From contig OY759316.1 of assembly GCA_963662275.1 (NCBI GenBank), positions 96,001 through 160,000 on the forward strand: a stretch of 64,000 nucleotides of DNA, given 5' to 3'. Positions 5,163 to 43,545 of the stretch are shown here, one piece after another. A model generated the notes under the pieces. That model was not told the origin of the DNA and made no database searches. It saw only the letters and a list, made by a program, of their open reading frames with translations. The number at the start of each line of letters is the position of its first letter. The stretch's first letter is position 1. The position numbers were made by a program, and so were the translations under genes. The DNA is from Candidatus Cloacimonadales bacterium. GTDB lineage: Bacteria > Cloacimonadota > Cloacimonadia > Cloacimonadales > DAONDQ01.

Positions 5163-5198
5163 AAAAAAAATACAGAAATAAGGCTATTTCTGTATTTT
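5163..5198 (-). terminator. Probable intrinsic terminator after the 5280-7145 gene
   Basis: Perfect 14-bp stem aaaatacagaaata / tatttctgtatttt with a 4-nt loop, followed by a T-run on the minus strand. Confidence 0.6.
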
Positions 5199-5279
5199 GC
5201 ATCAGAGATTTGTCATTATTTGAAAAACAGGAAGTAAATCATCAATGCCAAAATCAAGTCAAATTGAAGAATTAGAAAG

Positions 5280-7145: not shown

Positions 7146-7414
7146 TATATCTGACTCCAGTATTAAACATTAATAATTTCATAGAGGAAAGTTAATTAAT
7201 TCACAGCTTTCGCTCATAAATGTTTTCCATATATCTTATTTAGATTCACGAACTTTTTTGGTTACATATATGTCAAGGACAAAGTACTATATTTACCTGT
7301 AAAACAAAAATACGGAACTGCATGACCCAATGTACAATACAAATAAGGTACTAATACCTATTATATTCAAAATTGTTATTATACACAAATCCCATTCTGC
7401 GAATTATCGACTCA

Positions 7415-10897: not shown

Positions 10898-10930
10898 TTT
10901 CTGCTCCTATATAACCGGATATTCCGGTTT

Positions 10931-27329: not shown

Positions 27330-28343
<1,014 letters not shown>

Positions 28344-28567
28344 CTATTTTATTGAATTTATCTGAAAGCTAAGATTTTGGAGTTCAAATTTCCTTCGCAT
28401 CTTTTAGGATAATTCAAGAAATAGGAAATTCGGACTTTACATGAAAACTGAGGTTTTGGAGTTCAAATGCCCTAAACAAATTATCATTGAATAACTGATT
28501 AAAAGGGCATGTGGACTTCAAACCCGACCTTTCATCATCTATAGCTAAAACTCCATTTCAGGTATGT

Positions 28568-29542
28568 TTACAAGAAAACACTTTGATTAGCACTGCCAGT
28601 CATCACGACAAAATCTTCAATTGTCTTCTGCACTGCAGCTTCTGTAGCTCCCATCCATTTGCGGGGGTCGAATTTGCTCTTATCTGGGAAATAATCATTT
28701 GGATTCACATCTGCTGGGCATACAATGGCATATTTTTCTTTTTCCCAGAACTTCTGAATTGCTGTAGCCATATCCATTTGGTATTGTGTATCCTTGTTGA
28801 TTTTTACAACTCCATTTTTGATGGCTAGATGTTGCTGTTCATCTGTAAGCCCTGATGCGCCATGTAAAACGATTCCTCTTTCAATGCCATTCGAGATAAG
28901 CAAATCATCAATCGCCTTGATCAGATCTAAATGAAGTACAACTTTTGCACCTTTAGTGACTCCGTGATTCGTACCAACCGAAGCAGCAAAAAGATCGACG
29001 TTCGTTTTCATCACAAATTCCAATGCTTCTTCCGGTTTTGTATATAATTCTGTATCAGACACGATCTCATCTTCAGAACCTTTGATGTGTCCTATTTCAC
29101 CCTCCACTAAGATATTGTATTTATGAGCAATACTAACAACTTCTTTGGTGATACGGATATTTTCTGCAAGTTCTTCTTTGGAAGCATCAATCATAACGGA
29201 AGATACCAATCCATTTTCCACACAATATACGATAAAATCGAAGTAATTTGGAGTTGCATGATCAATATGCAAACCAACACCGGAACTCTTATACTGATTT
29301 GATAATATCTTTATCGTATTGGAAATCAACTGAGCCCCAACTTTAATATCCTGGGTTGTACCGGCAGCATATTTCACTGCTCCAGAACTCATTTGCAGCA
29401 ATCCATCTGATTTCTTTGCTTCGTATCCCTGAACCAAGCCACGAATGGTTGAATCAAATACTACATTGGAAGCGATGATTCCGAAACGTTCTTTTTTAGC
29501 TTTCAGGAATACTTCTTTCAGTTTTGTTCCATCTAAAAACAT
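28568..29542 (-). CDS. fba: Class II fructose-bisphosphate aldolase
   Basis: LHIDH, SSVMIDAS, VEGEIG, SVGTNHG, VLHGASG and KINKDT motifs; lies upstream of gap. Confidence 0.9.
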   Translation of the reverse strand: MFLDGTKLKEVFLKAKKERFGIIASNVVFDSTIRGLVQGYEAKKSDGLLQMSSGAVKYAAGTTQDIKVGAQLISNTIKILSNQYKSSGVGLHIDHATPNYFDFIVYCVENGLVSSVMIDASKEELAENIRITKEVVSIAHKYNILVEGEIGHIKGSEDEIVSDTELYTKPEEALEFVMKTNVDLFAASVGTNHGVTKGAKVVLHLDLIKAIDDLLISNGIERGIVLHGASGLTDEQQHLAIKNGVVKINKDTQYQMDMATAIQKFWEKEKYAIVCPADVNPNDYFPDKSKFDPRKWMGATEAAVQKTIEDFVVMTGSANQSVFL

Positions 29543-29565
29543 AATTTCTCCTTTTTTCTAATGTA

Positions 29566-30462
29566 TTACAAGCGGAGTATTTTTTCCACAATATCTTTTG
29601 TTGTGATTACTCCGACTACTTTTTTATCCTTCTCGGCTACTGTCAAATGATACAAATTATTCTTTAACATGACAAACACGACTTCTACCATCGTACTACT
29701 AGGTGGTACTGTCTTTTGCAGTTTAATGATATTTTTTATCAGCATGGTTTTTTCTTTCTTCAGGAACTCCTGGAATGGCTCTAGGTTCAAGAGGAAGGAA
29801 AGATCTTCCATCATAAATACGTACTCGGGGAGACTGAGCCTGAGGATATCCAGGTTGTTGATTTCACCAACATATCGATCGTTATCATCCACCACAGGTA
29901 AAAAACCCATATGATTCTTCTTCATAAGATCTGTTACTTCTTGGACAGTCGAATCTTTAGATATGGTGATGGGGAGTGTCATGATATCTCGGGCAAGTAA
30001 ATTCGTTTCTAATTCTACTTCGGTCATTTTCACAAGATCCAGGATCTGTTGACCATTCGAACTTTGAATAATCTGCTTATAAATATGTTCAAATCGTGAA
30101 GATATTTTAGCAAAACCAGCTACTGTCTTCAAGTAGAGCGATGCTTTTTCTGGCGAAGTAATGATCATGACGATCATTCGAACTTCTTCCTTCTCAAAAA
30201 CAACAGGTTTTTTAAAGGTCGCTATTGATACCGCTAATTCTGAAAATCCATCTACTCTTGCATGAGGAATAGACATGCCACCCGGATATACCATTGATCC
30301 CAATTTTTCCCTCTCTTCCAATCCTTGAAGACAAATGGAAGTATCCAAATGAGGATAGACTTTATGCATTTCCTCCAATAAAAACTTGTATACTGGTATT
30401 TTCCCATCCATCTGAAGATTTGGAAAGATAAGTTCGGGTTTTACAAGACTGGCTAAATTCAT
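29566..30462 (-). CDS. PTS EIIA (Ntr/Fru-type) domain fused to a CBS pair
   Basis: EREKLGS..SIPHAR (phospho-His) followed by two CBS repeats. Start moved to ATG 30462 (GGAGG RBS). Confidence 0.85.
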   Translation of the reverse strand: MNLASLVKPELIFPNLQMDGKIPVYKFLLEEMHKVYPHLDTSICLQGLEEREKLGSMVYPGGMSIPHARVDGFSELAVSIATFKKPVVFEKEEVRMIVMIITSPEKASLYLKTVAGFAKISSRFEHIYKQIIQSSNGQQILDLVKMTEVELETNLLARDIMTLPITISKDSTVQEVTDLMKKNHMGFLPVVDDNDRYVGEINNLDILRLSLPEYVFMMEDLSFLLNLEPFQEFLKKEKTMLIKNIIKLQKTVPPSSTMVEVVFVMLKNNLYHLTVAEKDKKVVGVITTKDIVEKILRL

Positions 30463-30954
30463 AATTCCTCCAACAGTTACATCACCATTTTTCTGCATCA
30501 AACACATGCTGAATACAAAATATTCATTTTGTTTAAAAACTTCTATATAAAATCTATACGTCAAGTTAAAAAAAGGGAATTCTTAATTTTTATCTTCCCG
30601 ATATTCTATCTGACACCATATACTGCATGTCATTTACATCTCTTTTTTCTCCATTCAATAAACACTATACATCCTCTATCCATAAAGCATCCATAAAGCA
30701 TGCCTTGGAAGAAATTGAAACTTGTATATATTTTGATAATGATTTGTTATGGTTTTTTTTCTTCTAAGCTATCTATTGAGATTTAAAGAAGCGGGATTAG
30801 TTAAGAGTTCCAGCAACCCTTGGAGTTCAACTTGTCAAAATAATCTTTCCATAAATCTAATCTGATAGGCAAGTTGGACTTCAAGCCCGAATTGAACTCC
30901 AAATCCTTACACTCAGCTTTTCAAACGCTCCAACACTAAAAAGACCCCCCTACC

Positions 30955-31257
30955 CCCCTTCTCAAGGGGGGATTTAGGCAGTCCCCTTCTCAAGGGGGGA
31001 TTTAGGCAGTCCCCTTCTCAAGGGGGGATTTAGGCAGTCCCCTTCTCAAGGGGGGATTTAGGCAGTCCCCTTCTCAAGGGGGGATTTAGGCAGTCCCCTT
31101 CTCAAGGGGGGATTTAGGCAGTCCCCTTCTCAAGGAGGGATTTAGGCAGTCCCCTTCTCAAGGAGGGATTTAGGCAGTCCCCTTCTCAAGGAGGGATTTA
31201 GGCAGTCCCCTTCTCAAGGAGGGATTTAGGCAGTCCCCTTCTCAAGGAGGGATTTAG
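30955..31257. repeat. Tandem array of a 28-bp REP-derived unit (ccccttctcaagg[g/a]gggatttaggcagt), 11 copies, no spacers
   Basis: Units start at 30955, 30983, ... 31235; copies 1-6 have GGGGGG, copies 7-11 have GGAGGG, and the last is truncated. An inverted REP copy follows at 31294-31324. Confidence 0.95.
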
Positions 31258-31327
31258 ATGATCATCCATCTCTATGGGAGATTGTAACTATGAATCCCCC
31301 CTTGAGAAGGGGGGTAGGGGGGTCGGT

Positions 31328-33598
31328 TCATCTTGTCTTCTTAATTAAAACAAATCTGGTGATAAAAACAAAGACGATGGTCATGAAAATAATCATGCCA
31401 ATATCAATGAACAAATTATCTGCATTAAAACCGATGGCATCTGTAATGACTGAATTATCTTCGAGAATAACAAGCTGTTCAAAAGCCCAACGGCTTAGCA
31501 TGAATCCAGCTAAGATATTAACGCCTTCCGGTATGTTGCCAAAAGGAACGATCAAACCACCTAAGATGACTTGTGGTATCAGGGTTATGGGAACCAATGC
31601 CATGGCAGTTTCTCCTGTCTTTACTACAGCAGATAATGCTAATCCCATACTCAGTGCGGAGATAGATGTCATAGTTAGAGTGAGGTTAAGAATAAAAAAG
31701 TTCACGCTCATATCAGCAGTAATGTATGCTGCAAAGCTTAATATTAGGCATTGGAATGCACAAAGCAAAGAAAGAACGCAAACTTTTGACCACAGGTAAG
31801 CATCGATATTGAGATTGGCTTTTTGCTCTCTTTTAAAGATCGTCTGTTCTGTGACAATTTCCCTGGCTGAATTGGAACACCCTAACCAGATAGCTGCTAC
31901 AATTAGCACAAAATAGAGTGACTCAATCCTATCAGTTGATCTGAATACAAGAAAGATAAAGAGACCAATGATCGGAGCTTGCAAAAGCAGGACTGCGGCA
32001 CTAAAAGTATCCCTGAACTTCACTAAAAACATGCGTTTGCACAGAACTGAGAACTGATAAAGTGCATCAGCCTGTAAGGATTGAGGTAATTTATGAGAAC
32101 TCTCCACAGGGTGCTTAAACCCGGAATCTATCCAGTCATTACAGTAAGAACTCTTTAAGTAATCTTGTTGTAAGCGTTGAGGATCAGTTTTCTCAAGGGT
32201 ATCAAAGATATCCTCCGGTTTGGATACCCCAAAATAACCTATTGCTTCCTGCGTTGGACCGAAGTAAGCAAGTCTGCCTCCATAAGTCAGAACGATCAAA
32301 TGAGAAAAGATGGAAAAATTGAGCGCATCAATTTTATGAGTTGTGAGCACGACGATATGCCCATGATCTGCAATATCTTTTAGGAGATGCATTACTTCTC
32401 GATCGCTGAGTGGGTCTAATCCGCTTGTAGGTTCATCTAAAAAATAGAGCGACGGCTCGGTAATCAGCTCTTGTGCCATATTTACTCTTTTCCGCTGACC
32501 ACCGCTAATTCCTTTTTTTTCAGGAGAACCGATAAGCGTATCTTTGGCATTTGTTAGATTGAGAGATAATAGTATTTGCGTAATTTGCCTGGTTCTTTCC
32601 TCTTCAGTTATTTGGTCACCAAGACGAAGTTTACTGGTGAAATTGAGGGATTCTTCAACTGTAATTTCCCGATGGATAATATCATCCTGCGGTACATAAC
32701 CTATTTGACCCTGGAAAGCTCCAGGATTGTGATAAAGAGATACTCCATTGATTTGTACAGAACCTTCGGAAGGTTTTAAGTATCCGTTCAGCATCATCAT
32801 AAGAGTAGTTTTTCCACAGCCTGAAGGACCAATCAAACCGATAAACTGACCCGGTTCAAAACAAATACTCAGATTATCAACCAGCGTCTTATTGGGAACT
32901 TTAAAGCTTAAGTTTTGAGCGACCAGTCGTAAACCTGCACTCCAATCAGGCATCTCCTTACTGAATATTTTAACTAAATCAAGCGGTACACCGCCAATCA
33001 TAATTTTATCATGTTCAGAAATAAGGGCTTTCCCTGTCTTCTGCCCATTGATATAAGTGCCATTAGCGCTATTTAAATCTTCTATCTGCCAGGCAGTTCC
33101 TATCTTTGTCAGCTTGGCATGATAGCGAGATACACGAATATTCTTGATAGTAATGTCATTATCATGCTCTCGTCCAATGCTGATGATATTTTTACCCAGA
33201 ATATTGCTATTTATTGGAATAGAAGGAGGACTAGGAATTTCTGAACCTTCACTGTTTTTGTATGTCTGCAAGACTTGGTGCAAATCTAAGACAAGCCCAC
33301 TCGCTAATGTAATTGTATCATTTGCAGTAACGATCTTCTCAGATATTCTCTGGTTGTTAATAAAAACACCATTCGTTGAATTCAAATCCTTGAGAAGATA
33401 ACTTCCATCAGGAGTAACTATCAGTACACAATGATGCCCGGAAATTCTATTATCCTGGATTAAATAATCGTTGTCAACCGCTCTTCCTATATGAATTGTT
33501 ATTGATTCTGTTGACTGCTTTGCGTCAATCTTCGCTCCACAAAAGGGACAGAATTTAGAATCATTATCAATTGTTTTTGAGCAGTTGGGACACTGCAT
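31328..33598 (-). CDS. Zn-ribbon + 2 x FHA + ABC ATPase + ABC-2 permease fusion (Rv1747-like exporter)
   Basis: CPNC..CPFC; IGR..SGHH..NG and IGR..SRYH..NG; GPSGCGKT, ISGGQRKR, LDEPTSGLD; C-terminal transmembrane helices. ATG 33598 preferred. Confidence 0.92.
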   Translation of the reverse strand: MQCPNCSKTIDNDSKFCPFCGAKIDAKQSTESITIHIGRAVDNDYLIQDNRISGHHCVLIVTPDGSYLLKDLNSTNGVFINNQRISEKIVTANDTITLASGLVLDLHQVLQTYKNSEGSEIPSPPSIPINSNILGKNIISIGREHDNDITIKNIRVSRYHAKLTKIGTAWQIEDLNSANGTYINGQKTGKALISEHDKIMIGGVPLDLVKIFSKEMPDWSAGLRLVAQNLSFKVPNKTLVDNLSICFEPGQFIGLIGPSGCGKTTLMMMLNGYLKPSEGSVQINGVSLYHNPGAFQGQIGYVPQDDIIHREITVEESLNFTSKLRLGDQITEEERTRQITQILLSLNLTNAKDTLIGSPEKKGISGGQRKRVNMAQELITEPSLYFLDEPTSGLDPLSDREVMHLLKDIADHGHIVVLTTHKIDALNFSIFSHLIVLTYGGRLAYFGPTQEAIGYFGVSKPEDIFDTLEKTDPQRLQQDYLKSSYCNDWIDSGFKHPVESSHKLPQSLQADALYQFSVLCKRMFLVKFRDTFSAAVLLLQAPIIGLFIFLVFRSTDRIESLYFVLIVAAIWLGCSNSAREIVTEQTIFKREQKANLNIDAYLWSKVCVLSLLCAFQCLILSFAAYITADMSVNFFILNLTLTMTSISALSMGLALSAVVKTGETAMALVPITLIPQVILGGLIVPFGNIPEGVNILAGFMLSRWAFEQLVILEDNSVITDAIGFNADNLFIDIGMIIFMTIVFVFITRFVLIKKTR

Positions 33599-34094
33599 AT
33601 TTTTTCCTAATAGTTTGCTTTTGTTCAATACCAAAGGCTTTTACAGTTATACTGCCTTCTATAACAACACCACTGAAGGCAATGTTAATGATATCTGTGG
33701 GTTTAAAATCCGGTTCAATTGTTATGTTCAAGGGAATTTCTTCAGTTGAAAATGCTCTTAACATGAATGCATTCCTACTCATAAGAAGAGCTATGATCGA
33801 GTTGTCAGAAGATTTTACATTCAAGATAAAAGGTTCAATATTTAAGGGAATGAAGGTTGGATTCTGAATTTTTAATATTGCTAAACCCTCCTGCCCTTTG
33901 AGGATATCAAGAATGCCTATGTTCTCAACACTGGCTTGAATATTCTGCAGTTTGTGGATACTATATCCGATAAGCACTATCAGAAAGGATAGCAACAAAG
34001 CACAGCACAGAACAAGCCATTGATTACGAGAAAACTGTAGCTTTTGTTTGATGTCTGCTTTATTTGTTACTACGGTTTGATCATAATTTTTCAA
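33567..34094 (-). CDS. Membrane-anchored LEA type 2-like protein
   Basis: Single transmembrane helix, then LKIQNPTFIPLNI..EEIPLNITI..IEGSITV pattern. TTG 34094 follows GAGAAGG; overlaps both neighbours. Confidence 0.55.
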   Translation of the reverse strand: MKNYDQTVVTNKADIKQKLQFSRNQWLVLCCALLLSFLIVLIGYSIHKLQNIQASVENIGILDILKGQEGLAILKIQNPTFIPLNIEPFILNVKSSDNSIIALLMSRNAFMLRAFSTEEIPLNITIEPDFKPTDIINIAFSGVVIEGSITVKAFGIEQKQTIRKKYAVSQLLKNN

Positions 34095-34848
34095 GACGTT
34101 TCCTTCTCTCTTGAGCAGTAGGATGCGTTGAAATAAAATCATTTACAGCTTTCATATTACTGTCTTTAAATTTTACTTCCTTCTTCTCCAGTATTTCAAA
34201 GAAAGACAAGGCACCGGCTTTATTGTAGCCTGCTTTTTGCATAAGTTTAAAACCATATTCATCTGCTTGGCGTTCAATTTCTTTTGAAAATGGATATGTA
34301 TATGTCGTATACGCAATCTGAACCACATTTCCCAAGGTGGGATTAATTTTAGAAGCCTGGTAGGAATGCTGGATACGATGAATGCAATGCTTCAATTCAT
34401 TGTGAGCAATTTCATGAGCGATGACAAATGCCAGTTCATCTTCGTTGTTTATACCATTCAGCAATTCTGTATTGATGAACATCTTCCCACCCGCAATAGC
34501 ATACGCGTTGAAAACATTACTCTGAATAATGGTGACATCATATTTCAAGGCAGTACGCGTACAAAATGGTGTTAATTTATGCATTACTTGATTAACATCG
34601 AATTTCTGAGATTTACTAATTTTAGCATTACTTAGAATTTTAGCTTTTAATTCTGTTCCGATCTTATTTTCATCTGAATCGCTGACACTGTCCATATCAA
34701 GCAGTGCATTATCAATAGTTTGGGCAGCACTTATCCCGGCATTGAAAAGATCATCAATAACTTCACTGCCAAGATGGATAGGGACTAAGAATAGAATTAC
34801 TGCAAGATATTGAATAAGTCGTTTGGATTGCCGGAGTTGAAAATACAC
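34081..34848 (-). CDS. M48 family zinc metalloprotease (BepA/YggG-like)
   Basis: NAYAIAGG, ELAFVIAHEIAH, ERQADEYG..AGY and STHP motifs; exact start uncertain. Confidence 0.88.
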   Translation of the reverse strand: MYFQLRQSKRLIQYLAVILFLVPIHLGSEVIDDLFNAGISAAQTIDNALLDMDSVSDSDENKIGTELKAKILSNAKISKSQKFDVNQVMHKLTPFCTRTALKYDVTIIQSNVFNAYAIAGGKMFINTELLNGINNEDELAFVIAHEIAHNELKHCIHRIQHSYQASKINPTLGNVVQIAYTTYTYPFSKEIERQADEYGFKLMQKAGYNKAGALSFFEILEKKEVKFKDSNMKAVNDFISTHPTAQERRKRLEKL

Positions 34849-35156
34849 GACCAGCCTCCTTTTGGGTCTTTCTTAAAGATCAATTTACCAGGGATATTAG
34901 TACTTGGTAAAAGCATTAGGGGCTTGTTCAGGTCAAAAGAAAAATCAACTACATACTCAGTCCTGGTATCATTAGAATATCCCTCAGAGACGATGGTTAT
35001 TTTTTTTACATTATATGAAGCACCGAGGAATTGAGTCACATTTTGCTTTAAACTGTCAAACTGCTCTTTCTTTAGTTTGCTGAACTTCATACTGCATGAA
35101 GTTGCAACCAGGCAGACTATGAATAACAAAACAAGAATACGAATTTTATATCTCAT
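34797..35156 (-). CDS. Small putative lipoprotein
   Basis: Basic N-terminus, hydrophobic core and lipobox-like LVATSC; 4-bp overlap with the phosphatase gene. Confidence 0.7.
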   Translation of the reverse strand: MRYKIRILVLLFIVCLVATSCSMKFSKLKKEQFDSLKQNVTQFLGASYNVKKITIVSEGYSNDTRTEYVVDFSFDLNKPLMLLPSTNIPGKLIFKKDPKGGWSCIFNSGNPNDLFNILQ

Positions 35157-36106
35157 TGTTTCCCCTTTGAAATTGCCTTTGTAGTATCAGTGGATATCAT
35201 TTTCTTTCCTATTGTGGTTGTATCTACAATAACATGTTTTCCTGAGTTCAGTTTAAATACTGGATATAAGGCATAAATTGTGGCAAACAAAACGATACTG
35301 ACAGAAAATAGAATAATGAATGACCAGGGTACTTTTCTATGAGTTTCCGTATTTACACTAATGGGTGCACCAATGTTTGATTTTACGATCTGAATCGTCA
35401 CATTATCATCACTTCCCTGCTGATTGGCAATATCTACGAAAGCGATGCATGCATCCTGCGGTTCTTTCTCCAGGATTTTGCTCATTTCCGGAAGAGTAAA
35501 ATAATGATACAAACCATCAGAGCATAACATGAAAACATCAGATTTGCATAATGAATAAGGTCCACTGATATCAGGAATGAAATTATCAGTACCTGCTGCT
35601 TTTGTGATGATATTCCTCTGGGGATGATCAATTGCCTGTTCTTCTGTCAGAATACCTCTATCCACCATATTCTGCACTAGCGAATGATCCTTGGTGAGTT
35701 GTCTTAAGAGTCCACCTCTTTTCAGATACAGCCTGCTATCACCTAGATTGGCAAACCAGTACTGCGTTCCAATGATCAACAGCAAGACCACCGTAGTGCC
35801 CATGCCTTCTGTATCAGGATTGGCTTTAGCATACTCAATAATGCTATCCTGAATATGCAGGAAGGCTTGTTCAATTTCAACTCGAGGGTCATATTGGCTG
35901 ACTAAACTCTTGAAATGCTCATAGACAGATTCTACAGCAAGCCTGGAGGCAATCGCTCCACCGGTATATCCGCCCATCCCATCGCATACGATGATGAGAT
36001 GTCCAAAGCTCTCATCATACCTGCCATAGTAATCCTGGTTCTCAGTTCTGACTTTTCCAACGTCTGAGAGATTCCCGAATTCGAAATCCGGCTTCTTCAT
36101 CTCCAT
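35153..36106 (-). CDS. PP2C/PPM Ser/Thr phosphatase (Stp1/PrpC-like) with C-terminal transmembrane helix
   Basis: GKVRTENQD, VCDGMGG, GMGTT, NLGDSRLY, DHS, LCSDGL and GSDDNVT motifs. Confidence 0.94.
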   Translation of the reverse strand: MEMKKPDFEFGNLSDVGKVRTENQDYYGRYDESFGHLIIVCDGMGGYTGGAIASRLAVESVYEHFKSLVSQYDPRVEIEQAFLHIQDSIIEYAKANPDTEGMGTTVVLLLIIGTQYWFANLGDSRLYLKRGGLLRQLTKDHSLVQNMVDRGILTEEQAIDHPQRNIITKAAGTDNFIPDISGPYSLCKSDVFMLCSDGLYHYFTLPEMSKILEKEPQDACIAFVDIANQQGSDDNVTIQIVKSNIGAPISVNTETHRKVPWSFIILFSVSIVLFATIYALYPVFKLNSGKHVIVDTTTIGKKMISTDTTKAISKGKQ

Positions 36107-36114
36107 AATTTCTC

Positions 36115-37674
36115 CTACACCAGGTTAAAATTACCTTCCACCGAACCAAGCTTGAATGTGCAGTTACTTTCCAGTCTAAAAAGCTGAACCTTATTGCCAT
36201 TGATGAAAATACCATTTGTAGAGCCTACATCTTCAATAAGGAAAAAACCATCTTCATAATATATTTTAGCATGGTGTGAGGAGACGGTATTATCCGTTAG
36301 AATAATCCTGTTATCATCTGCTCTGCCAATCGTTGAACCCGTTTTATCGATCGAATACACTTTCCCCATGTCAGTACCAAAAATGATTTCCATACGGAGA
36401 ATGCCGTTTGCAGATTGGGTACTTTGACCGGCACCCATAATCATTGTGCGTTCTCTATCTGCTTTAATTGCTTCAGGTTTTCGTTGTTCGACTATTTCCG
36501 TCTGTGAAGTGGCTTGTTGAATCTTGCTTTCGCTTAATTCTTTTTCTAAAGCTTCCCTTTTTTGTCGTTCTGCATCAATTTCCTTCTGCTTCTGCTCTTC
36601 TAAAAGCCTGATTTCATTATCCCGTTTTTGCTTATTCTTTCTCGCCCGTTTTCTCAGGAACAAGACAACTCCGGTAATAATGACCAAAGCTCCCAGTATG
36701 ATAAGCAATATGACAGGATTTACTTTCTGCTTTTTTGCCAGCGGTGTAACAGGAAGATAGGCTGGTCTGCCGGCTGGGGCAACGAACTTTGCTGCCAGTT
36801 CTTTTGTACCCAAGGTTGTTTTCACGACTATCCCGAGATTATGCTCTGCACCGTCTCCGGCTACACCAACGACGATGTAACTCAATAAATTGATATTCAT
36901 GATCTGGCGGTACAGTCTATTGTAATGCTCAACTAAATCATCTGAAGTGGGAGCATAATAATAGCTTCCTCCCGTGCTTTCCGCCATACGTTCCAGCGAT
37001 TGCAGATAAACTTCCTCCACTTTACTGTAGCCTATGGTAAAGATGGGGATGCCATTATTCTTCGCAATTTGGATAATATCATTTTCGGAATAGGCTTTGG
37101 TGGGATTTTCATCTTTACCATCACCCATCAAAATCAGAATTTTACCAGTCCTGTCTTCGACATTCACCAGTTGCTCAATCGCTTTATCTGCCCCATAATA
37201 GAGGGAAGTAAAATTACCTTTGGGAGTGATGTTATTGATCGTATTCTTTAAAAGAGTTCTTTCATTGGTAAAATCAGCAAGTAATTGATAATCGTCTGCA
37301 TATACACTGATCGCGACTTTATCCACGGAACGGATTTTGTTTATAAAGGGAATGATGGCATTTTTGATTGATTGAATGGGTTCACCACGCATAGAACCGG
37401 AAGCATCCAGGCAAAGCATGATATGCAAGCCCTGCCCTGTTTTCTCGTATGTCGTGGTTCGGAGCGAATCAATCATCTTGCTATCTACGATAACCCTAAA
37501 ATTCTTCTCAGTAAGATCTTTCACCGGTTCATCAGAACTATCCAATACCTGGACAGAACTGATATTCAGAGGGTAGTTTTGAGTATCAGTCTTGATGTAG
37601 CGTGCGGTTATAGGGGTTGCTGATAAGCTTATGATGAAGCTAATGGTGATTAATATGAAGAAGATTCGTTTCAT
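36115..37674 (-). CDS. Signal peptide + vWA (MIDAS) + TM + coiled coil + FHA protein
   Basis: CLDASGSM (DxSxS), LMGDG, transmembrane VILLIILGALVIITGVVLFL, FHA IGR..SSHH..STNG. ATG 37674 has an AAGGAGG RBS; a duplicated in-frame start lies at 37785. Confidence 0.9.
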   Translation of the reverse strand: MKRIFFILITISFIISLSATPITARYIKTDTQNYPLNISSVQVLDSSDEPVKDLTEKNFRVIVDSKMIDSLRTTTYEKTGQGLHIMLCLDASGSMRGEPIQSIKNAIIPFINKIRSVDKVAISVYADDYQLLADFTNERTLLKNTINNITPKGNFTSLYYGADKAIEQLVNVEDRTGKILILMGDGKDENPTKAYSENDIIQIAKNNGIPIFTIGYSKVEEVYLQSLERMAESTGGSYYYAPTSDDLVEHYNRLYRQIMNINLLSYIVVGVAGDGAEHNLGIVVKTTLGTKELAAKFVAPAGRPAYLPVTPLAKKQKVNPVILLIILGALVIITGVVLFLRKRARKNKQKRDNEIRLLEEQKQKEIDAERQKREALEKELSESKIQQATSQTEIVEQRKPEAIKADRERTMIMGAGQSTQSANGILRMEIIFGTDMGKVYSIDKTGSTIGRADDNRIILTDNTVSSHHAKIYYEDGFFLIEDVGSTNGIFINGNKVQLFRLESNCTFKLGSVEGNFNLV

Positions 37675-37690
37675 TCCATCCTCCTTAAGT

Positions 37691-37766
37691 TGTAAAGCAA
37701 GACGCCGTTCTTGCTGTCTGCTCTGGTATGTAAAGCAAGACGCCGTTCTTGCTGTCTGCTCTGGTA
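37691..37766. repeat. Exact 38-bp tandem duplication containing a hairpin, between two copies of the vWA-FHA start region
   Basis: tgtaaagcaagacgccgttcttgctgtctgctctggta x2; flanks 37654-37690 and about 37765-37801 are similar (offset 111). Confidence 0.88.
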
Positions 37767-37795
37767 TGAAGAAGATTTGTTTCATTCCAGACTCC

Positions 37796-38440
37796 TTAAA
37801 TCGTTTTCAGTTGCAGATTTATGGTTCCGATCCTGATAATTGAATTGTTATTTAGCTCAGTCTTATCTTCAATGAATTTACCATCAACATATGTCCCATT
37901 TGTGGAGAGCATATCCTGGATAATGAATTTATTCTCCCGATATAGAAGCACTGCATGTTCTTCGGAAATGCCCGGCTGCTGAATGACAATATCACAGCTT
38001 GGGCTACTGCCTATCCGATGCCTGCCTACATATAGCTTATAGTCAATACCGGCAGGATTGATATCAAATGTGACCAGCCAGCCTACTAACTTCCTGATAC
38101 CAGGTTGTTGAACTGAGCCTGAGTCTTTATCGGTTGAGTTATTCCCATAAATCATGGTTTTATCTGACCTGGCGGTTCCGCTATTTGGATTTGTTGGGCT
38201 GAGTTTGGGAGCACCGAGATCAACGACCGTCTTATCCCTGTTATTAACGGCATTATCAACTTGTGTTTTTGCCCCGCTGATCGTCATTCCCGCACTCGGA
38301 CAGAAAGGGCAATCCGATAAGGCAGCATCATAATTATGCCCATTTCTGCATGTCTTGTAGTCCTGCTTTATCGGAGTGCCGCAACTCTTGCAATAAGTTG
38401 CGCTTCCTGAGTTTTCCAATCCGCATTTAGAGCATTTCAT
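37796..38440 (-). CDS. Double Zn-ribbon + FHA domain protein
   Basis: CSKC..CKSC; CRNGH..CPFC; LVGWLV; FHA IGSS..SEEH..STNG. Confidence 0.88.
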   Translation of the reverse strand: MKCSKCGLENSGSATYCKSCGTPIKQDYKTCRNGHNYDAALSDCPFCPSAGMTISGAKTQVDNAVNNRDKTVVDLGAPKLSPTNPNSGTARSDKTMIYGNNSTDKDSGSVQQPGIRKLVGWLVTFDINPAGIDYKLYVGRHRIGSSPSCDIVIQQPGISEEHAVLLYRENKFIIQDMLSTNGTYVDGKFIEDKTELNNNSIIRIGTINLQLKTI

Positions 38441-38551
38441 ATGTATCTCCTTATTGAAAGTATTCTATATTGAAAACTGGGATGCTAAATTTAGAACAAT
38501 GGCAAGTTACGCAAAACCATAAAAAACAAGCAAGATAATTATAAATATACT

Positions 38552-38719
38552 GTAGCGCCTACTTAAGGAGGTAATCTGGAACGCTATCTTTAGATAGAGC
38601 TATGTGCTCTTTAGAAGGCGTATGCTTTGCTGCTGGTTTGTTTGAATACATGTACTGAAGTCAACGTAGCACCGTCAGGATGACAACGTACCAGATAAAC
38701 CTCCTGAAGTAAGCGCTAC
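38552..38719. mobile_element. REPIN/MITE-like element with GTAG-type inverted ends
   Basis: Left end gtagcgcctacttaaggaggt; right end acctcctgaagtaagcgctac (near reverse complement); interior homologous to 40508-40720. Confidence 0.7.
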
Positions 38720-38759
38720 ATTACTTACTGAAGTAAGCGCTACCAGTATTCTGCATAAA

Positions 38760-40091
38760 TCAAGGTACAATCCTACACAAGCGAAAGCCAATGTTGTAGT
38801 CACTGTAAGTCGCATAGCTATAGAGGTATCGATTGGAAACGGGGCAGCCACTGGCACCGCTACTCCAGCTACCACCGCGTTGCACACGGTAAAACCCGCT
38901 GACAGCACCATGCGGATTCACCTGTGCTCCACTCGGATATGTGCCATAAATGTCCCAGTTCCATTCCCAGATGTTACCGCTCATGTCAAACAGTCCTAAT
39001 TCATTGGCTGTCTTAGTGCCTACGGTGTGGGTAGTACTGCTGGAGTTTGATTCATACCAAGCTATACCGTCAATTGTATTACTTCCACTGTAGGTATAAT
39101 TATGTGTCGAATTACCACCTCGTGCCGCAAATTGCCATTCCGCTTCTGTAGGAAGACGGTAACCATTGGCTGTCCAAGAACAGGATACGTTAGTATGATT
39201 TAGATAATTAGTATTCCAACCGGAAGGCCAGGTAGCGGGATTAACGCCATTTGTGCTGTAGCTATAGCAGGGAGTCAGCCCTTCACTTATACTACGCTTG
39301 TTGCAATACTCGATAGCATTGAACCAGGAGACTTGCTCCACAGGTCTGTTGGTCACACCAGTAAAGTAAGATGGATTTGTTCCCATGACAGCCTGATAGG
39401 CAGACTGCGTCAGCTCATACTTATCCAGATAGAAGGAGGATATGGTTACATTAGATGTACCGTTATTAAATGTACCGCCTTGAACTAAAACAAAGTTCGC
39501 AGGAATTGGTATTATTGTATATAACGCAGTTGCTGTTATACTCGCTTCTATTCCTGTTTTAAAGGCTTTAGCTTTAAGAATTGTTGTTGAGGATATGGTA
39601 ATTGCACCATTATATTGCAATGATGATTCTGTAGGTTCAGAACCATTAGTTGTATAACGAATTTGTGCTCCACTCGTAGCACATGAGATTTCAACCGTTT
39701 GAGCAGATGAGTAAGTACCATCAGCTAAACTAAATGTTGGAGTTGCAACACCTTCAACAGAAATGATTCTGAAGAATTGGTAATGCTGAGATGCTAAGGT
39801 AAACCAGTAAACACTATTTGCATTGTATGTAAAGAGACCTGAAGAAGTAACATCGGTAAAACCTGTAGTGCTTTCATTTGATGCTTCCACAATGTAATTT
39901 GAAGCATTGGGAACAACCGTCCACTTCAACACAGCACTAATATTAATCGATAGATCATTGGGAGGATTGACATCTCTCAGGAAATTCATAGTATTATTGT
40001 TCGATTTGCTTAATCGATCTGGAATAATAATTTTAGAATTTAATCCGGATACTATCAAGACAAGTAATAGAAAGAATACTAACTTTTTCAT
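38760..40091 (-). CDS. Secreted FGE-sulfatase (C-type lectin fold) domain protein with chitobiase/Fn3-associated domain; candidate DGR target
   Basis: Signal peptide; IRYTTNGSEP; PVEQVSWFNAIEYCN, YRLPTEAEWQFAARGG, GLFDMSGNIWEW and RVQRGGSW..IGFRL motifs. Confidence 0.9.
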   Translation of the reverse strand: MKKLVFFLLLVLIVSGLNSKIIIPDRLSKSNNNTMNFLRDVNPPNDLSINISAVLKWTVVPNASNYIVEASNESTTGFTDVTSSGLFTYNANSVYWFTLASQHYQFFRIISVEGVATPTFSLADGTYSSAQTVEISCATSGAQIRYTTNGSEPTESSLQYNGAITISSTTILKAKAFKTGIEASITATALYTIIPIPANFVLVQGGTFNNGTSNVTISSFYLDKYELTQSAYQAVMGTNPSYFTGVTNRPVEQVSWFNAIEYCNKRSISEGLTPCYSYSTNGVNPATWPSGWNTNYLNHTNVSCSWTANGYRLPTEAEWQFAARGGNSTHNYTYSGSNTIDGIAWYESNSSSTTHTVGTKTANELGLFDMSGNIWEWNWDIYGTYPSGAQVNPHGAVSGFYRVQRGGSWSSGASGCPVSNRYLYSYATYSDYNIGFRLCRIVP

Positions 40092-40252
40092 GATTTACTC
40101 CTTTTATTGAATTCATTCTTTAAATGTTACTCTATAGATATTCTTATGTCCATAAAATAGATAATCAGTAATTCCATAATGTAGAGCAGGATGCCGTTCC
40201 TGCTTCACAATAACGTCCTGCGGACTTTCGTAGTATATACTTCCGGATGTTT

Positions 40253-40429
40253 TCACCGACATCTCTCCCGGAAATGAGCGTCATCAGTCAGATGTGGATA
40301 CAGGGTTTTGAGGGCAAGCTTCTTGTCGGTTAAGGCTTCTTCCACCAGATAGACTTCACCCATACCGCCTTTGCCGAGTAAGGATAAAACATGATACTGG
40401 TTAATTTCCTGCCCGATCTGAAATATCAC
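40253..40429 (-). pseudogene. Truncated Ser/Thr kinase N-terminal fragment
   Basis: FQIGQEINQYHVLSLLGKGGMGEVYL..LALK then a stop after 58 codons; coding start and upstream region are homologous to those of the 41460-43118 kinase. Confidence 0.85.
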
Positions 40430-40507
40430 AGGCTCTCCTTCTGAGATTGTATATTTAAATTTGCAGAGTGTAATATATTTTGTCAATAAGTGATTTGTTT
40501 AATAAAC

Positions 40508-40720
40508 GTAGCGCTTACTTTAGGAGGTAATGTAGAACTTTATTTATACCGTTATCTTTTGTTGATTGACCCCCCTACCCCCCTTCTCAAGGGGGGATAT
40601 TCTCCCCACTTTAGAGGACGTATGCTCTGCTGCGGGCTTCTTTAAAATACATGGACTAAAGTCAATGTAGCACGGTCAGGATGACAGCGTTTCTGATTAA
40701 CCTCCTGAAGTAGGCGCTAC
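40508..40720. mobile_element. Second copy of the GTAG-ended REPIN/MITE-like element, carrying a nested CCCCCTACCCCC REP
   Basis: gtagcgcttactttaggaggt ... acctcctgaagtaggcgctac; REP at 40568-40597 lies inside. Confidence 0.7.
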
Positions 40721-40725
40721 GTCAG

Positions 40726-41058
40726 TTATTTGTTCAAAATGCAGTATATTTTAGCTTTTAAGTCTGGCAAATCAACTGTTATCGTTTCCCAGATACGGTT
40801 AAAATTTAGTATTAGATATGCATGCGCAGCCATATCACGGATACCGGATATTTGTTTCCAAGGTATGTCTGAATATGTTAATTTTAAGTCGGTGGATATG
40901 TCTTTTACTTTTTCACCTATATTAATAAGCGTCATTACAACTGCCCTTTGCGCTATCTCAGAAGATAAAAAAGCAGCTTCATCCAGATCTGCAATTATGC
41001 TGTTTATGATGTCTATCTCTTTAAGGATAATCTGGAGAAGAATCGTATCTCTATTCAT
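40726..41058 (-). CDS. HEPN (DUF86/HepT-like) RNase toxin
   Basis: IGE..IPWKQISGIRDMAAHAY (R-x4-H-x-Y), IWETI; overlaps the MNT gene. Confidence 0.9.
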   Translation of the reverse strand: MNRDTILLQIILKEIDIINSIIADLDEAAFLSSEIAQRAVVMTLINIGEKVKDISTDLKLTYSDIPWKQISGIRDMAAHAYLILNFNRIWETITVDLPDLKAKIYCILNK

Positions 41059-41356
41059 AAATAGTTACAGCATCTGCCAGAATACTATCTTTTATCATCG
41101 GTTCCAAGCATTGGCTTTCCACCAAATCAACCGATTTCCCCAATTTTTCTTCCAAATATTGCTTGAGACCGATAAACTTGAAGATACCAAATTGCTTCGT
41201 AAGATCGACGATAATATCAATATCGCTATCAGCTGTATCTTCGCCTTTGGCATAAGACCCAAAGACGGCTATTTTGCTTATACCATAATCATCAATATAT
41301 GGTTTCAAAGCCTCATAAATTATTTTGAAGCGCGGGTTTGTTGTTACTAACATCAT
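41051..41356 (-). CDS. Minimal nucleotidyltransferase antitoxin (MntA-like)
   Basis: VFGSYAKG..DSDIDIIV (GS-x10-DxD) and LGKSVDLV motifs. Confidence 0.92.
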   Translation of the reverse strand: MMLVTTNPRFKIIYEALKPYIDDYGISKIAVFGSYAKGEDTADSDIDIIVDLTKQFGIFKFIGLKQYLEEKLGKSVDLVESQCLEPMIKDSILADAVTIYE

Positions 41357-41459
41357 GACTATTTCTCCAACTCATCTTTATTTTTGACTCTATTGATACG
41401 TATATTATTGTCAAGCAGTGTTTAATTTTACTAAAAGCTGAGGGTTGCAGAGTTCCAGA

Positions 41460-43118
41460 TTAACCTCCTAAAGTAGGCGCTACATTGCATTCCCCGTCTT
41501 TATTCAGTCCCCAGGCGACAATTGAACCGTCCGATTTCATAGCAAGGTTGTGAAAGTAACCTGCAGCAATGGCAATGAATTGATTACCTACGGGAACTTT
41601 GCATTGACCCTCGCTATTATCTCCCCAGGCAACAAGTGAACCATCCGACTTCAAGGCAAGACAGTGAATGGCTCCTGCTGTTATGGCACTAAAATTATAG
41701 CCAACAGGAACATTGTACTGTCCATCCCTATTATCTCCCCAAACAATCAAGGAACCATCCGACTTCAAAGCAATGCTGAAATATTTTCCTGCTGCAATGG
41801 CAGCGAATTTCATACCCTTCGGGACATTGCATTGACCATGATCATTAGCTCCCCAAGCAATGATAGAACCATTACTCTTCAATGCTAGGCTATGATATTG
41901 TCCGGCTGAGATGGCAATGAAATCATTACATTCCTGTTTATCGCATTGACCATCATCATTACAGCCCCAGGAAATTAATGAACCATCCGTCTTCAAGGCA
42001 AGACTGTGAAATCTTCCTGCTGCTATGGCAGTGAAATGATGACCCGTCTGTATAACAGATTGCCCGGAATAATTTGAACCCCAAGCTTCCATTGAACCAT
42101 CCGACTTCAACGCCAGGCAATGGCTTAATCCGCCAGCAATGGCAGTGAAATTATTACCCACTGGAAAAGTGCATTGACCATGATCGTTCAATCCCCAGGC
42201 TGCTAATATGCCATCAGTTTTCACGACAAGACTAAAACAATTACCGGCAGCTATTTTACCGCAACTATCATTATGGATGGGAGATGATTCAATTGGCAAA
42301 TGTGCAGATAATCTACGAAGTATTTCCTCTCCGGATATACGCAAATTGCTTTCCTTCTGAGTCATTGCCTGGATCAATGATGCAGTTCCATCACTAATCT
42401 GCGGATAGATGCTCCTCGGATCAGGCAGAGGTTCATTGACTATCTTATTCATAATCGTTAATTCGCTATCAGTATCTGCATTATAAGGAAGCTGTGTAGT
42501 CAGCATTTCGAATAGAGTTACCCCAAGAGAATAGATATCTGTTTTTGCATCAACATTATTGGCATCATTGACCTGTTCCGGACTCATATAACACATAGTC
42601 CCAATCCGGACACCTGTTTGTGTAATACCCCTTTCTCCCAACATAAGGGCTATGCCAAAGTCCAGGATCTTTACATTGTCCCAAGCATCTAAAATGATAT
42701 TGGATGGTTTAATGTCCCTGTGTATGATCTTTTTGTCATGAGCATAATCCAAAGCGTTCATGATTTGCCTGAATATATAGAGCGCTCGCTGTTCCGGGAT
42801 AGCCCCGGTTTGACTGATTAAATCCTTGATAGTGATTCCGGCAGCATATTCCAGCACCATATTATAGACACCATCTTCTATGAAGAAATTGTGCAAAGTT
42901 ACGATATTGGGATGGCTTAGTTTTGCCTGGATACGTGCTTCATTGATAAACCTCTCAGCAAACTGGGTATCTGTGGTTAAGGATGGATTTAGTCTTTTAA
43001 TGGCTACCTGTCTGCCTAAAAGTGTTTCCTCAGCCAGATAAACCTCACCCATACCACCTTTACCGAGTAAGGATAAAATATGATACTGATTGATATTCTG
43101 CCCAATCTGAAATGTCAC
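41460..43118 (-). CDS. Hanks-type Ser/Thr protein kinase fused to RCC1-like repeats
   Basis: GKGGMG, VAIK, HRDIKPSN, DFG and YMSPEQ motifs; seven ~37-aa repeats AIAAGxxHSLALKSDGSxxAWGxNxxGQC; no transmembrane helix. Confidence 0.93.
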   Translation of the reverse strand: MTFQIGQNINQYHILSLLGKGGMGEVYLAEETLLGRQVAIKRLNPSLTTDTQFAERFINEARIQAKLSHPNIVTLHNFFIEDGVYNMVLEYAAGITIKDLISQTGAIPEQRALYIFRQIMNALDYAHDKKIIHRDIKPSNIILDAWDNVKILDFGIALMLGERGITQTGVRIGTMCYMSPEQVNDANNVDAKTDIYSLGVTLFEMLTTQLPYNADTDSELTIMNKIVNEPLPDPRSIYPQISDGTASLIQAMTQKESNLRISGEEILRRLSAHLPIESSPIHNDSCGKIAAGNCFSLVVKTDGILAAWGLNDHGQCTFPVGNNFTAIAGGLSHCLALKSDGSMEAWGSNYSGQSVIQTGHHFTAIAAGRFHSLALKTDGSLISWGCNDDGQCDKQECNDFIAISAGQYHSLALKSNGSIIAWGANDHGQCNVPKGMKFAAIAAGKYFSIALKSDGSLIVWGDNRDGQYNVPVGYNFSAITAGAIHCLALKSDGSLVAWGDNSEGQCKVPVGNQFIAIAAGYFHNLAMKSDGSIVAWGLNKDGECNVAPTLGG

Positions 43119-43322
43119 AGGCTCTCCTTCTGAGATCGTTTGTTAAATATGCATATGATAATACATTTTGTCAATAGGTGATTTGTCCTCTATGAATCCA
43201 CTTAATTAATACCAAGTTCAATCCAAGCTCTTAGACTTGGAATCTTGCAGGATTGTATTTGGTAAGTAATAGGATTGCAGTTGGTATAATATATGCGGCT
43301 TGAAAAAGGATTCTTATGAAGT

Positions 43323-43396
43323 GTAGAGACGACCTACAAGGGCGTCTCATGCAAACAGTCAAATAGTAGAAAGACGCCCAAGTTGGGCGTCTCTAC
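43323..43396. repeat. Pair of GTAG-family REP palindromes (GTAGAGACG...CGTCTC)
   Basis: gtagagacgacctacaagggcgtctc and agacgcccaagttgggcgtctctac in opposite orientation. Confidence 0.7.
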
Positions 43397-43545
43397 GAAG
43401 TAATTCGACTACGTTCAATGACCGGAATACAGCGCTCCAAGGACTCTTTACAAGAGCAGTTTGTGAAGTGTAAAATAATTCTCTTGCCCATTTCCTGTGT
43501 TTTCTCTTTTTACAAATTAGGATAATAATAAATAGAAAGGATAAA

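Follow-up and report, generated by a model that had tools for sequence, protein, structure and literature searches.

A conserved FHA, PP2C and vWA gene cluster of Cloacimonadota and Ignavibacteriota: a candidate membrane-spanning phosphothreonine switch for an ABCG-like exporter

Bacterial signaling through Ser/Thr kinases, PP2C phosphatases and FHA domains, which bind phosphothreonine (pThr), is understood mainly from Actinobacteria, Firmicutes and the system for type VI secretion (T6SS). Here we describe a compact cluster of seven genes from the uncultivated Cloacimonadota and Ignavibacteriota, retained in both phyla. The copy analyzed in most detail lies on the minus strand at 31328-38440 of a 64-kb stretch of contig OY759316.1 of a Candidatus Cloacimonadales bacterium; this whole stretch is referred to below as the window, and coordinates are positions within it unless a related locus is named.

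Several described systems share parts with the cluster. Rv1747 is an FHA-FHA-ABC transporter that is phosphorylated by PknF, the kinase of its own operon, and is positively regulated by this phosphorylation; its FHA domains bind the pThr sites of Rv1747 itself (PMC3138270). In the Arn module of Sulfolobus, which controls expression of the archaellum and is regulated by kinases and a phosphatase, the FHA domain of ArnA binds phosphorylated Thr in the C-terminus of ArnB; ArnB is a cytoplasmic protein that ends in a phosphorylated helical bundle and has neither a transmembrane (TM) segment nor an FHA domain (PMC6509490, PMC12852372). The threonine phosphorylation pathway of the H1-T6SS of P. aeruginosa combines a membrane Hanks kinase, a PP2C phosphatase, an FHA protein, a lipoprotein, a protein of the FGE superfamily (TagR, residues 127-359) and an ABC-like complex, and is read as a sensor of membrane damage (PMC13713981).

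The cluster consists of seven intact open reading frames (ORFs), designated G1 to G7 from the upstream end. G1 (37796-38440) encodes a soluble adaptor of 214 amino acids, in which two Zn ribbons are followed by a linker and, at the C-terminus, an FHA domain. The product of G2 (36115-37674; 519 amino acids) combines a signal-like N-terminus, a beta-rich region and a vWA domain with a TM segment, a charged linker and a C-terminal FHA domain. G3 (35153-36106) specifies a PP2C Ser/Thr phosphatase of 317 amino acids with one C-terminal TM segment and a short low-complexity tail, G4 (34797-35156) a small lipoprotein of 119 amino acids that belongs to no described family, and G5 (34081-34848) an extracytoplasmic M48 zinc metalloprotease of 255 amino acids with an N-terminal hydrophobic segment. 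The last two genes encode a bitopic membrane protein of 191 amino acids, in which a TM segment precedes a divergent LEA_2-type beta-sandwich (G6, 33567-34142), and a chain of 756 amino acids that runs from a Zn ribbon through two FHA domains and an ATP-binding cassette (ABC) ATPase to an ABC-2 permease (G7, 31328-33598). TM and signal assignments throughout come from a crude hydropathy scan. With revised starts, the gap between G1 and G2 is 121 bp (10 bp if an upstream ATG of G2 is used) and that between G2 and G3 is 8 bp; from G3 onward, successive genes overlap by 4, 52, 62 and 32 bp. The same seven genes at the same positions had been delineated by a model from the letters and translations alone (hereafter, the sequence-only reading), and its domain calls, including that of the lipoprotein, agree with matches in Pfam and NCBIfam and with an invariant lipobox Cys. 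Its count of four FHA domains in three proteins (one each in G1 and G2, and two in G7) is borne out by Pfam, and in every one of them the Gly, Ser-x-x-His and Asn-Gly residues are retained.

The sequence-only reading had named scattered homologues as the outcome that would tell against it; the set is instead kept together in 21 distinct loci. These were found by a genome scan anchored on an alignment of G2, which matched 103 stretches, 23 of them encoding a relative. The loci, referred to below by L numbers, are contigs of metagenome-assembled genomes (MAGs), and by record label comprise nine Cloacimonadota, ten Ignavibacteriota, one Gammaproteobacteria and one Bacteroidales (a 1.8-kb contig). 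Their ORFs were labelled by BLASTP against the window proteins, with profiles for G4 and G6, and a Pfam scan covered 39 locus proteins, which are part of the locus ORFs. G1 lies directly upstream of G2 at all 19 loci with sequence there, three of which have a small ORF between the two genes. A PP2C gene is present in 17 of the 21 loci, and the remaining four contigs stop within 1.1 kb after G2. At 11 of the 14 loci with sequence in that position, G4 directly follows the PP2C gene. The M48 gene and the FHA-ABC gene each occur in nine loci, and G6 in eight, always just before the ABC gene and in loci of the Cloacimonadota type only. The gene order of the window is kept in L001-L004, L013 and L021 (in L021 with G4 fused to G5), and also in L016, from which the M48 gene is absent.

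In the Ignavibacteriota loci L011 and L017, the gene families stay together though their order is shuffled. Thus, L011 reads M48, G1, G2, kinase, kinase, PP2C, G4, kinase, G7, kinase, kinase, so that G5, G1, G2, the PP2C gene, G4 and G7 all lie inside 11 kb despite the scrambling, while L017 reads G1, G2, four kinases and an amidase, PP2C, G4, M48. The FHA-ABC gene is absent within 10 kb in L015, which is a complete chromosome, and in L018, which has only an ABC ATPase devoid of FHA; L019 holds fragmented copies only. The flanking genes of the loci are not common to the window. In the G2 tree, the two phyla split on one branch (support 99/97), which fits long retention in each phylum rather than recent spread. 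Because the arrangement recurs in 21 loci from two phyla, it exceeds chance, and the gene set is a conserved unit, not a chance neighborhood.

Two further observations concern individual loci. The small ORF between G1 and G2, of 108-111 amino acids, is found in the Ignavibacteriota loci L007 (8604-8930), L009 (10216-10551) and L017 (10307-10633); it has no Pfam match, and neither the window nor the Cloacimonadota loci contain it. L003, a 6.9-kb contig labelled Gammaproteobacteria, carries G2-G7 and a kinase gene and groups with L001 inside the Cloacimonadota clade (99/97); its label probably reflects faulty binning of the source MAG.

Natural fusions tie the middle genes of the cluster together. 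L015 encodes PP2C, TM segment and M48 protease as one protein of 551 amino acids, and in L021 the lipoprotein is fused to the M48 protease (G4 profile, E 2e-19). The phosphatase itself matches PP2C_2 / PP2C in Pfam and reaches 227.2 bits against the Stp1/IreP model NF033484 of NCBIfam, for which the cut-off is 230. Its D42/G43, D197/G198 and D234/N235 pairs are invariant in 13 of 13 sequences, and its single TM segment (257-286) follows the catalytic domain. G4 has no match in Pfam or NCBIfam. It begins with a hydrophobic segment, and its lipobox Cys21 is invariant in all nine orthologues. An AlphaFold2 model of G4 (pLDDT, a predicted value of the local distance difference test, 83) shows one helix packed on a four-stranded sheet, for which Foldseek returned only weak matches in the PDB, to NTF2-like folds and the PBP2a N-domain (E 0.02 and above); its neighbors in the Atlas are clusters of unnamed lipoproteins. 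G5 matches Peptidase_M48 with an E-value of 6e-27 (95 bits, cut-off 20.3; Pfam), and the HExxH zinc site (H145, E146 and H149) is invariant in eight of eight sequences. Among PDB entries, the M48-family structure 3c37 matches G5 with E 6e-20 and BepA with about 1e-7. Identification of G5 as a BepA or LoiP equivalog was rejected: its scores of 62 and 54 bits, respectively, are far under the NCBIfam cut-offs of 570 and 365.

G1 and G2 are the two FHA adaptors of the cluster. The G1 product matches FHA (E 5.5e-21) as well as Zn_Ribbon_1 and Zn_ribbon_RanBP in Pfam, and the hydropathy scan found no TM segment in it. Its best match among solved structures is ArnA (5a8i, E 2.3e-9), with 8s05 chain C also matched. 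In the window's G1, the Arg that follows the FHA Gly is replaced by Ser; the Arg is kept in 16 of 19 orthologues. For G2, the Pfam matches are VWA (E 6e-18) and FHA (E 7e-18). Its ORF reaches 37785, and orthologue alignments begin at an internal Met, at 37674. A signal-like segment, a TM segment at 315-344 and an Arg/Lys-rich stretch after it place the vWA domain outside and the FHA domain inside the cytoplasm. What the sequence-only reading called a coiled coil is a charged stretch rich in Lys, Glu and Gln, as judged from the sequence only. The metal-ion-dependent adhesion site (MIDAS) of vWA domains in general follows the pattern Asp-x-Ser-x-Ser/Thr, Thr, Asp; this pattern is conserved in G2, with D90, S92, T156 and D185 invariant in an alignment of 21 sequences. 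The protein collection holds 20 full-length relatives of G2, which are 38-66% identical to it. When the vWA domain is searched against solved structures as a single sequence, ArnB comes first (8s05 chain A, E 3.4e-8); ArnB was rejected as the closest vWA match, since it ranks second, below 4rck, when the family profile is used.

The linkers of G1 and G2 are poorly conserved apart from three Thr residues. T71 and T95 of G1 are invariant in all 19 G1 sequences, and T410 of G2 (within ERTMI) is invariant in all 21 G2 sequences. All three lie within the motif [DE][KR]T[VMI][IVL], which occurs in 17 of 19 G1 and 19 of 21 G2 sequences, in none of 13 PP2C sequences and in one of 10 G7 N-termini, against a background of 0.46 per 1000 amino acids over all locus ORFs. 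To judge from this pattern of conservation, T71, T95 and T410 are candidate phospho-sites, which may serve both as kinase targets and as FHA ligands.

Pfam recognizes the Zn ribbon, two FHA stretches, ABC_tran and ABC2_membrane in the single chain of G7, to which the hydropathy scan adds about six TM segments. The ORF reaches 33634, and its probable start is at 33598. Residues 236-724 score 263 bits against TIGR00955 (NCBIfam), and the nucleotide-binding domain is nearest to the structures of Cdr1, ABCA and ABCG2. G7 is an ABCG-like half-transporter and the probable regulated output of the cluster. The linker between its FHA domains is rich in Ser, Thr and Pro and contains no Thr conserved across 10 orthologues, two of which (L013 and L021) have a single FHA domain, FHA-1 being absent. 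Similar FHA-ABC fusions are present in other phyla.

G6, which always precedes the exporter gene, has no direct match in Pfam. Its TM segment (38-66) lies upstream of the beta-sandwich, and the AlphaFold2 model (pLDDT 80) most closely matches TMEM106B in the PDB (luminal domain, E 2.4e-5), while AF_0446 and plant LEA14 (1yyc, rank 18, E 3.5e-3) rank lower; these fold matches are modest, with TM-scores of 0.27-0.52. A profile of nine orthologues retrieved 104 representative proteins, and 31 of the 36 weaker hits scanned carry LEA_2 in Pfam. Of 30 named Atlas neighbors, 23 fall within the LEA_2 set. A word-based homologue search returned only G6 itself and one near-identical protein. G6 is thus at best a distant member of the LEA_2 (PF03168) superfamily, and it is as a distant relative that the "LEA-2-like" call of the sequence-only reading holds up. 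Lipid binding has been suggested as a function of LEA_2 domains, that of TMEM106B among them.

The sequence-only reading had stated that the operon has no kinase of its own, and had pointed to an intact and a truncated kinase gene upstream on the same strand. Both of the latter are confirmed, and the statement is correct for the window; it does not hold for the family. In 13 of the 21 loci, the cluster contains or directly adjoins between one and five Ser/Thr kinase genes, and in L001, L003, L006, L011, L013 and L016 a kinase gene lies directly beside G7. Most of these cluster-linked kinases have a TM segment after the kinase domain. Pfam scans of 24 cluster kinases found FGE-sulfatase in nine, CD225 in three and ankyrin repeats in one, and a Zn ribbon or OB-fold match in none. 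CD225 is an interferon-induced transmembrane protein-like domain. In L001 (1570-1956, 1986-3155) and L016 (4967-5494, 5509-6648), a DUF2752 gene followed by a kinase-CD225 gene lies just upstream of G1. In L007, kinase and FGE are separate genes, and pairs of a TM kinase and a secreted FGE protein lie upstream of G1.

The intact kinase of the window (41460-43118, minus strand; 552 amino acids) consists of a Ser/Thr kinase domain (Pkinase, 5.7e-59) and an RCC1-repeat propeller, and has no TM segment. It is the sole intact kinase in the window, its kinase domain is 50-70% identical to cluster-flanking kinases elsewhere, and it is a candidate writer of the pThr marks. The remnant lies in a minus-strand ORF at 40253-40486, in which kinase similarity is confined to 40256-40429, i.e., about 57 codons that cover a kinase domain from about residue 4 to residue 60 (Pkinase; positions 1-37 of the profile, E 0.0011). 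When ten cluster-linked kinases were compared with the window by tblastn, two sites only were matched, the RCC1 kinase and this stump, the latter with 34-54% identity over 48-58 amino acids.

Between the stump, which it adjoins, and G1 lies the gene for a secreted FGE-sulfatase-like protein of 443 amino acids (38760-40091, minus strand; FGE-sulfatase, 3e-39, and CHB_HEX_C in Pfam), directly upstream of G1. Because the FGE part of a kinase-FGE fusion in L002 aligns to 38772-39497 and its kinase part to the stump, the adjacent membrane kinase of the window was probably lost by rearrangement. The secreted FGE gene may have arisen from such a fusion by a simple recombination, although the FGE protein is 66% identical to the last module of a 1153-amino-acid protein encoded at 48976-52437. 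In the larger protein, FGE-sulfatase domains number three and CHB_HEX_C/Fn3_assoc modules four. No ectodomain is more frequent among the cluster-linked kinases than the FGE-like one, and the secreted FGE protein may for this reason be associated with the cluster, its membership being uncertain.

A proposal to which we would give an even chance is that the cluster forms one membrane-spanning Ser/Thr phosphorylation switch that controls the ABCG-like exporter and is accompanied by a small periplasmic module. Cluster-linked kinases, mostly membrane-anchored with FGE-like or CD225 parts in the relatives and represented by the soluble RCC1 kinase in the window, would phosphorylate T71 and T95 of G1 and T410 in the cytoplasmic tail of G2. 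The four FHA domains would read these marks and so bring G1 and G2 together with the exporter at the membrane, an assembly that would switch exporter activity, by analogy with the positive regulation of Rv1747 through phosphorylation by PknF. The vWA/MIDAS ectodomain of G2 together with G4 and G5 would form the outer sensing or processing side, with the protease held at the membrane by the lipoprotein or by the phosphatase. The TM-anchored G6 protein might assist the exporter, possibly by handling a lipidic substrate. Finally, the membrane PP2C would remove the marks and reset the switch. The likely physiological role is cell-envelope homeostasis; the direction of the signal, the substrate and all of the contacts are what we infer from these parts.

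Several observations weigh against this proposal. The window has no adjacent membrane kinase, and the FHA domain of its G1 has Ser in place of the phosphate-binding Arg, so that this particular copy may be partly decayed or differ in its signaling. L015 and L018 lack G7, the Ignavibacteriota loci yielded no G6, and L016 has no M48 gene; in view of this patchiness, the notion of one machine may over-unify a core (G1, G2, PP2C and kinase) with accessories. The unconserved linker of G7 and the single FHA domain of its orthologues in L013 and L021 mean that linker phosphorylation of the Rv1747 type is not evident. It should also be noted that the scan was anchored on G2 only, and the counts are therefore silent on the occurrence of the other genes where G2 is absent, and that MAG contigs may be misassembled or mislabelled, as L003 illustrates.

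The patchiness would also fit an account in which two or three independent modules merely share a neighborhood, namely the signaling core, the lipoprotein with the M48 protease, and the LEA_2 protein with the FHA-ABC exporter; the core would then have another, unlinked target, and the exporter pair would be regulated by any cellular kinase. Only the core of G1, G2 and PP2C is present in every sufficiently long locus, whereas G7 is lacking in L015 and L018, M48 in L016 and G6 in the Ignavibacteriota loci, and FHA-ABC fusions occur in other phyla with no known link to vWA-FHA proteins. On the other hand, two fusions, PP2C::M48 and G4::M48, bridge the core and the protease pair, the scrambled locus L011 nevertheless keeps G5, G1, G2, PP2C, G4 and G7 within 11 kb, G7 has FHA domains of its own, and in the window G7 or its partner G6 overlaps the preceding gene. 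In our opinion, these links place the independence of the modules on the unlikely side, although it is a possibility to be taken seriously. If the phosphorylation switch is retained as a single device, its output may still differ from the one proposed. The cluster could be a regulator of cell-wall or outer-membrane growth comparable to the actinobacterial FhaA/FhaB-PstP-PknA/PknB cluster, in which case the vWA domain would not be a receptor, and the protease and exporter would serve biogenesis, through quality control of outer-membrane proteins and export of wall precursors. G1 and G2 indeed give partial matches to FhaB/FipA in NCBIfam, G3 is Stp1/PstP-like with a TM segment, G5 is distantly BepA/LoiP-like, and an Amidase_3 gene lies among the kinases of L017. 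The FhaB/FipA model (NF049868) nonetheless scores only 53.1 bits for G1 and 68.9 bits for G2 against a cut-off of 125, and no RodA, penicillin-binding protein (PBP) or division genes are found in the window or among the scanned locus ORFs. This explanation, which overlaps the switch that we favor and differs from it mainly in output, appears to us unlikely.

The exporter itself bears on a further alternative, in which the cluster would act as a sensor module of the T6SS threonine-phosphorylation type, and the secretion or contractile apparatus under its control would be encoded at another place in the genome. Type by type, the components do correspond (a kinase, a PP2C, an FHA protein, a lipoprotein, an FGE-superfamily protein of the periplasm and an ABC-like complex; PMC13713981), and FGE-like domains are found on or beside the cluster kinases. 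However, no T6SS gene was seen in the 64-kb window or among the locus ORFs labelled or scanned, which are only part of the whole, and TIGR03354 (T6SS Fha/TagH) scores 37.5 bits for G1 and 42.5 bits for G2 against a cut-off of 120.25. Moreover, the ABC-2/ABCG type of G7, with its fused FHA domains, points to the exporter itself as the target, and we regard control of a distant apparatus as very unlikely. Likewise very unlikely is an anti-phage or conflict system of the TerY-P kind, made of a vWA, PP2C and kinase triad with effectors. Such triads accompany defense systems, and TerY-P-like modules serve as stand-alone defense (PMC11090510); the window also has a HepT/MNT pair, an IS21-like element and dispersed repeats near the cluster. 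Yet PADLOC gave nothing specific for G1, G2 or G4 and only generic matches for PP2C, ABC and kinase proteins, the cluster contains no nuclease or other typical effector, its vWA domain is extracytoplasmic, and the G2 tree follows phylum boundaries, unlike a mobile defense island.

Within the proposal of a phosphorylation switch, a more specific and, in our opinion, doubtful reading takes the cluster as a trans-envelope circuit, hitherto unrecognized, for damage or stress in FCB-group bacteria, which would be related to the PpkA/PppA/Fha/TagQRST sensor but independent of the T6SS. FGE-like kinase ectodomains, the vWA/MIDAS domain, the lipoprotein-tethered M48 protease and a lipid-handling LEA_2 protein would jointly detect or process an envelope defect, and a reciprocal pThr-FHA "handshake" among G1, G2 and G7 would switch on an ABCG-like exporter of lipid or glycolipid for repair or remodeling of the outer envelope. 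If the parts act together, the cluster would offer a tractable model of pThr gating of an ABC exporter outside mycobacteria and a bacterial, membrane-embedded counterpart of ArnA/ArnB of archaea. It would likewise provide a functional context for the orphan G4 lipoprotein and for the bacterial TM-anchored LEA_2 families, and a test of whether the damage-sensor logic of the T6SS is a general design for envelope sensing. If the parts are independent, the finding shrinks to a well-annotated signaling neighborhood.

The surroundings of the cluster show several features of their own. A typical toxin-antitoxin pair lies between the stump and the intact RCC1 kinase: the gene of a HepT-like RNase (40726-41058) shares 8 bp with that of an MNT-type nucleotidyltransferase (41051-41356). 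The 20-base hairpin motif of the repeat array downstream of G7, described below, recurs at four further sites, 21597, 40580, 48417 and 48461, where no copy is expected by chance; the copy at 40580 lies between the stump and the HepT/MNT pair, and those at 48417 and 48461 form an inverted pair. The motif looks like a dispersed repeat family at rearrangement junctions. An IS21-like element comprises a transposase gene (52626-54170), whose product has rve and Mu-transposase C-terminal domains, and, after it, the gene of an IstB-like ATPase (54067-54918). Large secreted proteins are encoded at 2-13687 and 24433-27132, among them an Endonuclease_1 protein with fn3 and Calx-beta domains, a C25 peptidase and a metallophosphoesterase; on some of the secreted proteins of the window, Por_Secre_tail, a sorting domain of the type IX secretion system (T9SS), indicates an organism that uses a T9SS. 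In two related loci, neighboring genes hint at a role in the envelope: a MacB/FtsX-type permease follows the FHA-ABC gene of L021 (12264-13574), and an Amidase_3 peptidoglycan hydrolase is encoded among the cluster kinases of L017 (15701-16447).

The ends of the operon were not defined by scans for sigma-70 promoters and terminators (terminator-like sites, six against 7.3 expected), and a search of 28000-44000 at Rfam gathering thresholds gave no match. Downstream of the cluster, a perfect inverted repeat of 32 nt (30943-30974 / 31293-31324) begins four bases past the stop codon of G7. Inside it, a 28-bp unit is repeated head to tail about 11 times (30955-31262), and every unit has a short GC-rich hairpin (CCCCTT..AAGGGG). 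The array is not a CRISPR, because no spacers separate the 28-bp units; it may be a terminator, an RNA-stabilizing array or an element of the repetitive extragenic palindrome or bacterial interspersed mosaic element (REP/BIME) kind.

With the parts described, the comparison with the known systems can be made in detail. Like Rv1747, G7 has two N-terminal FHA domains, an ATPase and an ABC-2 permease in one chain, and in the six loci named above a kinase gene stands beside it; the likeness is one of domain architecture and not a claim of orthology. In the window, by contrast, about 8 kb separate G7 from the nearest intact kinase; G7 moreover has an additional Zn ribbon, an unconserved inter-FHA linker and, in two orthologues, a single FHA domain. 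Unlike Rv1747, G7 is part of a larger set with a vWA-FHA protein, a PP2C phosphatase, an M48 protease, a lipoprotein and a LEA_2 protein. G1 has both the architecture and the size of ArnA (RanBP2-type Zn ribbon, linker and FHA domain in 214 amino acids), and its gene adjoins that of a vWA protein at 19 of 19 loci, as the ZnF-linker-FHA and vWA genes adjoin in the Arn module. The partner differs, G2 having a signal-like N-terminus, a TM segment at 315-344 and an FHA domain of its own rather than the ArnB_C helical bundle, and nothing archaellum-like is present at the cluster.

The joint encoding of a vWA protein, a PP2C phosphatase and one or more Ser/Thr kinases (adjacent in 13 of 21 loci, and left as a stump in the window) recalls the TerY-P triad (PMC11090510), and the addition of FHA proteins recalls DRA0331-0334 of D. 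radiodurans (bioRxiv 10.64898/2026.01.23.701218). In contrast to both, the vWA domain of the cluster is extracytoplasmic and fused to FHA, and the protease, lipoprotein, LEA_2 protein and ABC exporter have no counterpart. The cluster kinases carry FGE-like, CD225 or ankyrin domains instead of the C-terminal Zn ribbon or OB fold of TerY-P, and PADLOC contains no defense model that matches the cluster. The "ternary systems" of PMC7159879 were considered as a further vWA/PP2C/kinase counterpart and set aside, as they are MoxR-vWA-VMAP systems.

The periplasmic domain of PpkA is probably a vWA domain, although the texts consulted do not state so. With the H1-T6SS pathway (PpkA, PppA, Fha1, TagQ, TagR and TagS/TagT), the cluster shares the same list of component types; it differs in that its vWA domain sits on an FHA protein rather than on the kinase, in the added M48 protease and LEA_2 protein, and in an ABC component of the ABC-2/ABCG type with fused FHA domains. 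No T6SS families came up when the window and the 39 locus proteins were scanned with Pfam. The resemblance to the FhaA/FhaB-PstP-PknA/B cluster is limited to matches below threshold, and the window scans contain no RodA or PBP family.

In the literature searched, which left subscription-only papers and bioRxiv supplements outside, no description was found that brings FHA, M48, PP2C and von Willebrand domains together, and FGE-sulfatase, FHA, PP2C and kinase are found together in the TagQ/TagR paper only. No named system with such a composition emerged, in line with the sequence-only reading, which had not recognized the set as one; its word "undescribed" stands for the ensemble and not for the sub-modules, which have described counterparts. 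Parts of the cluster resemble ArnA/ArnB, TerY-P, Rv1747/PknF and the T6SS pathway, but it belongs to none of these systems: the ensemble appears to be undescribed, while its logic is familiar.

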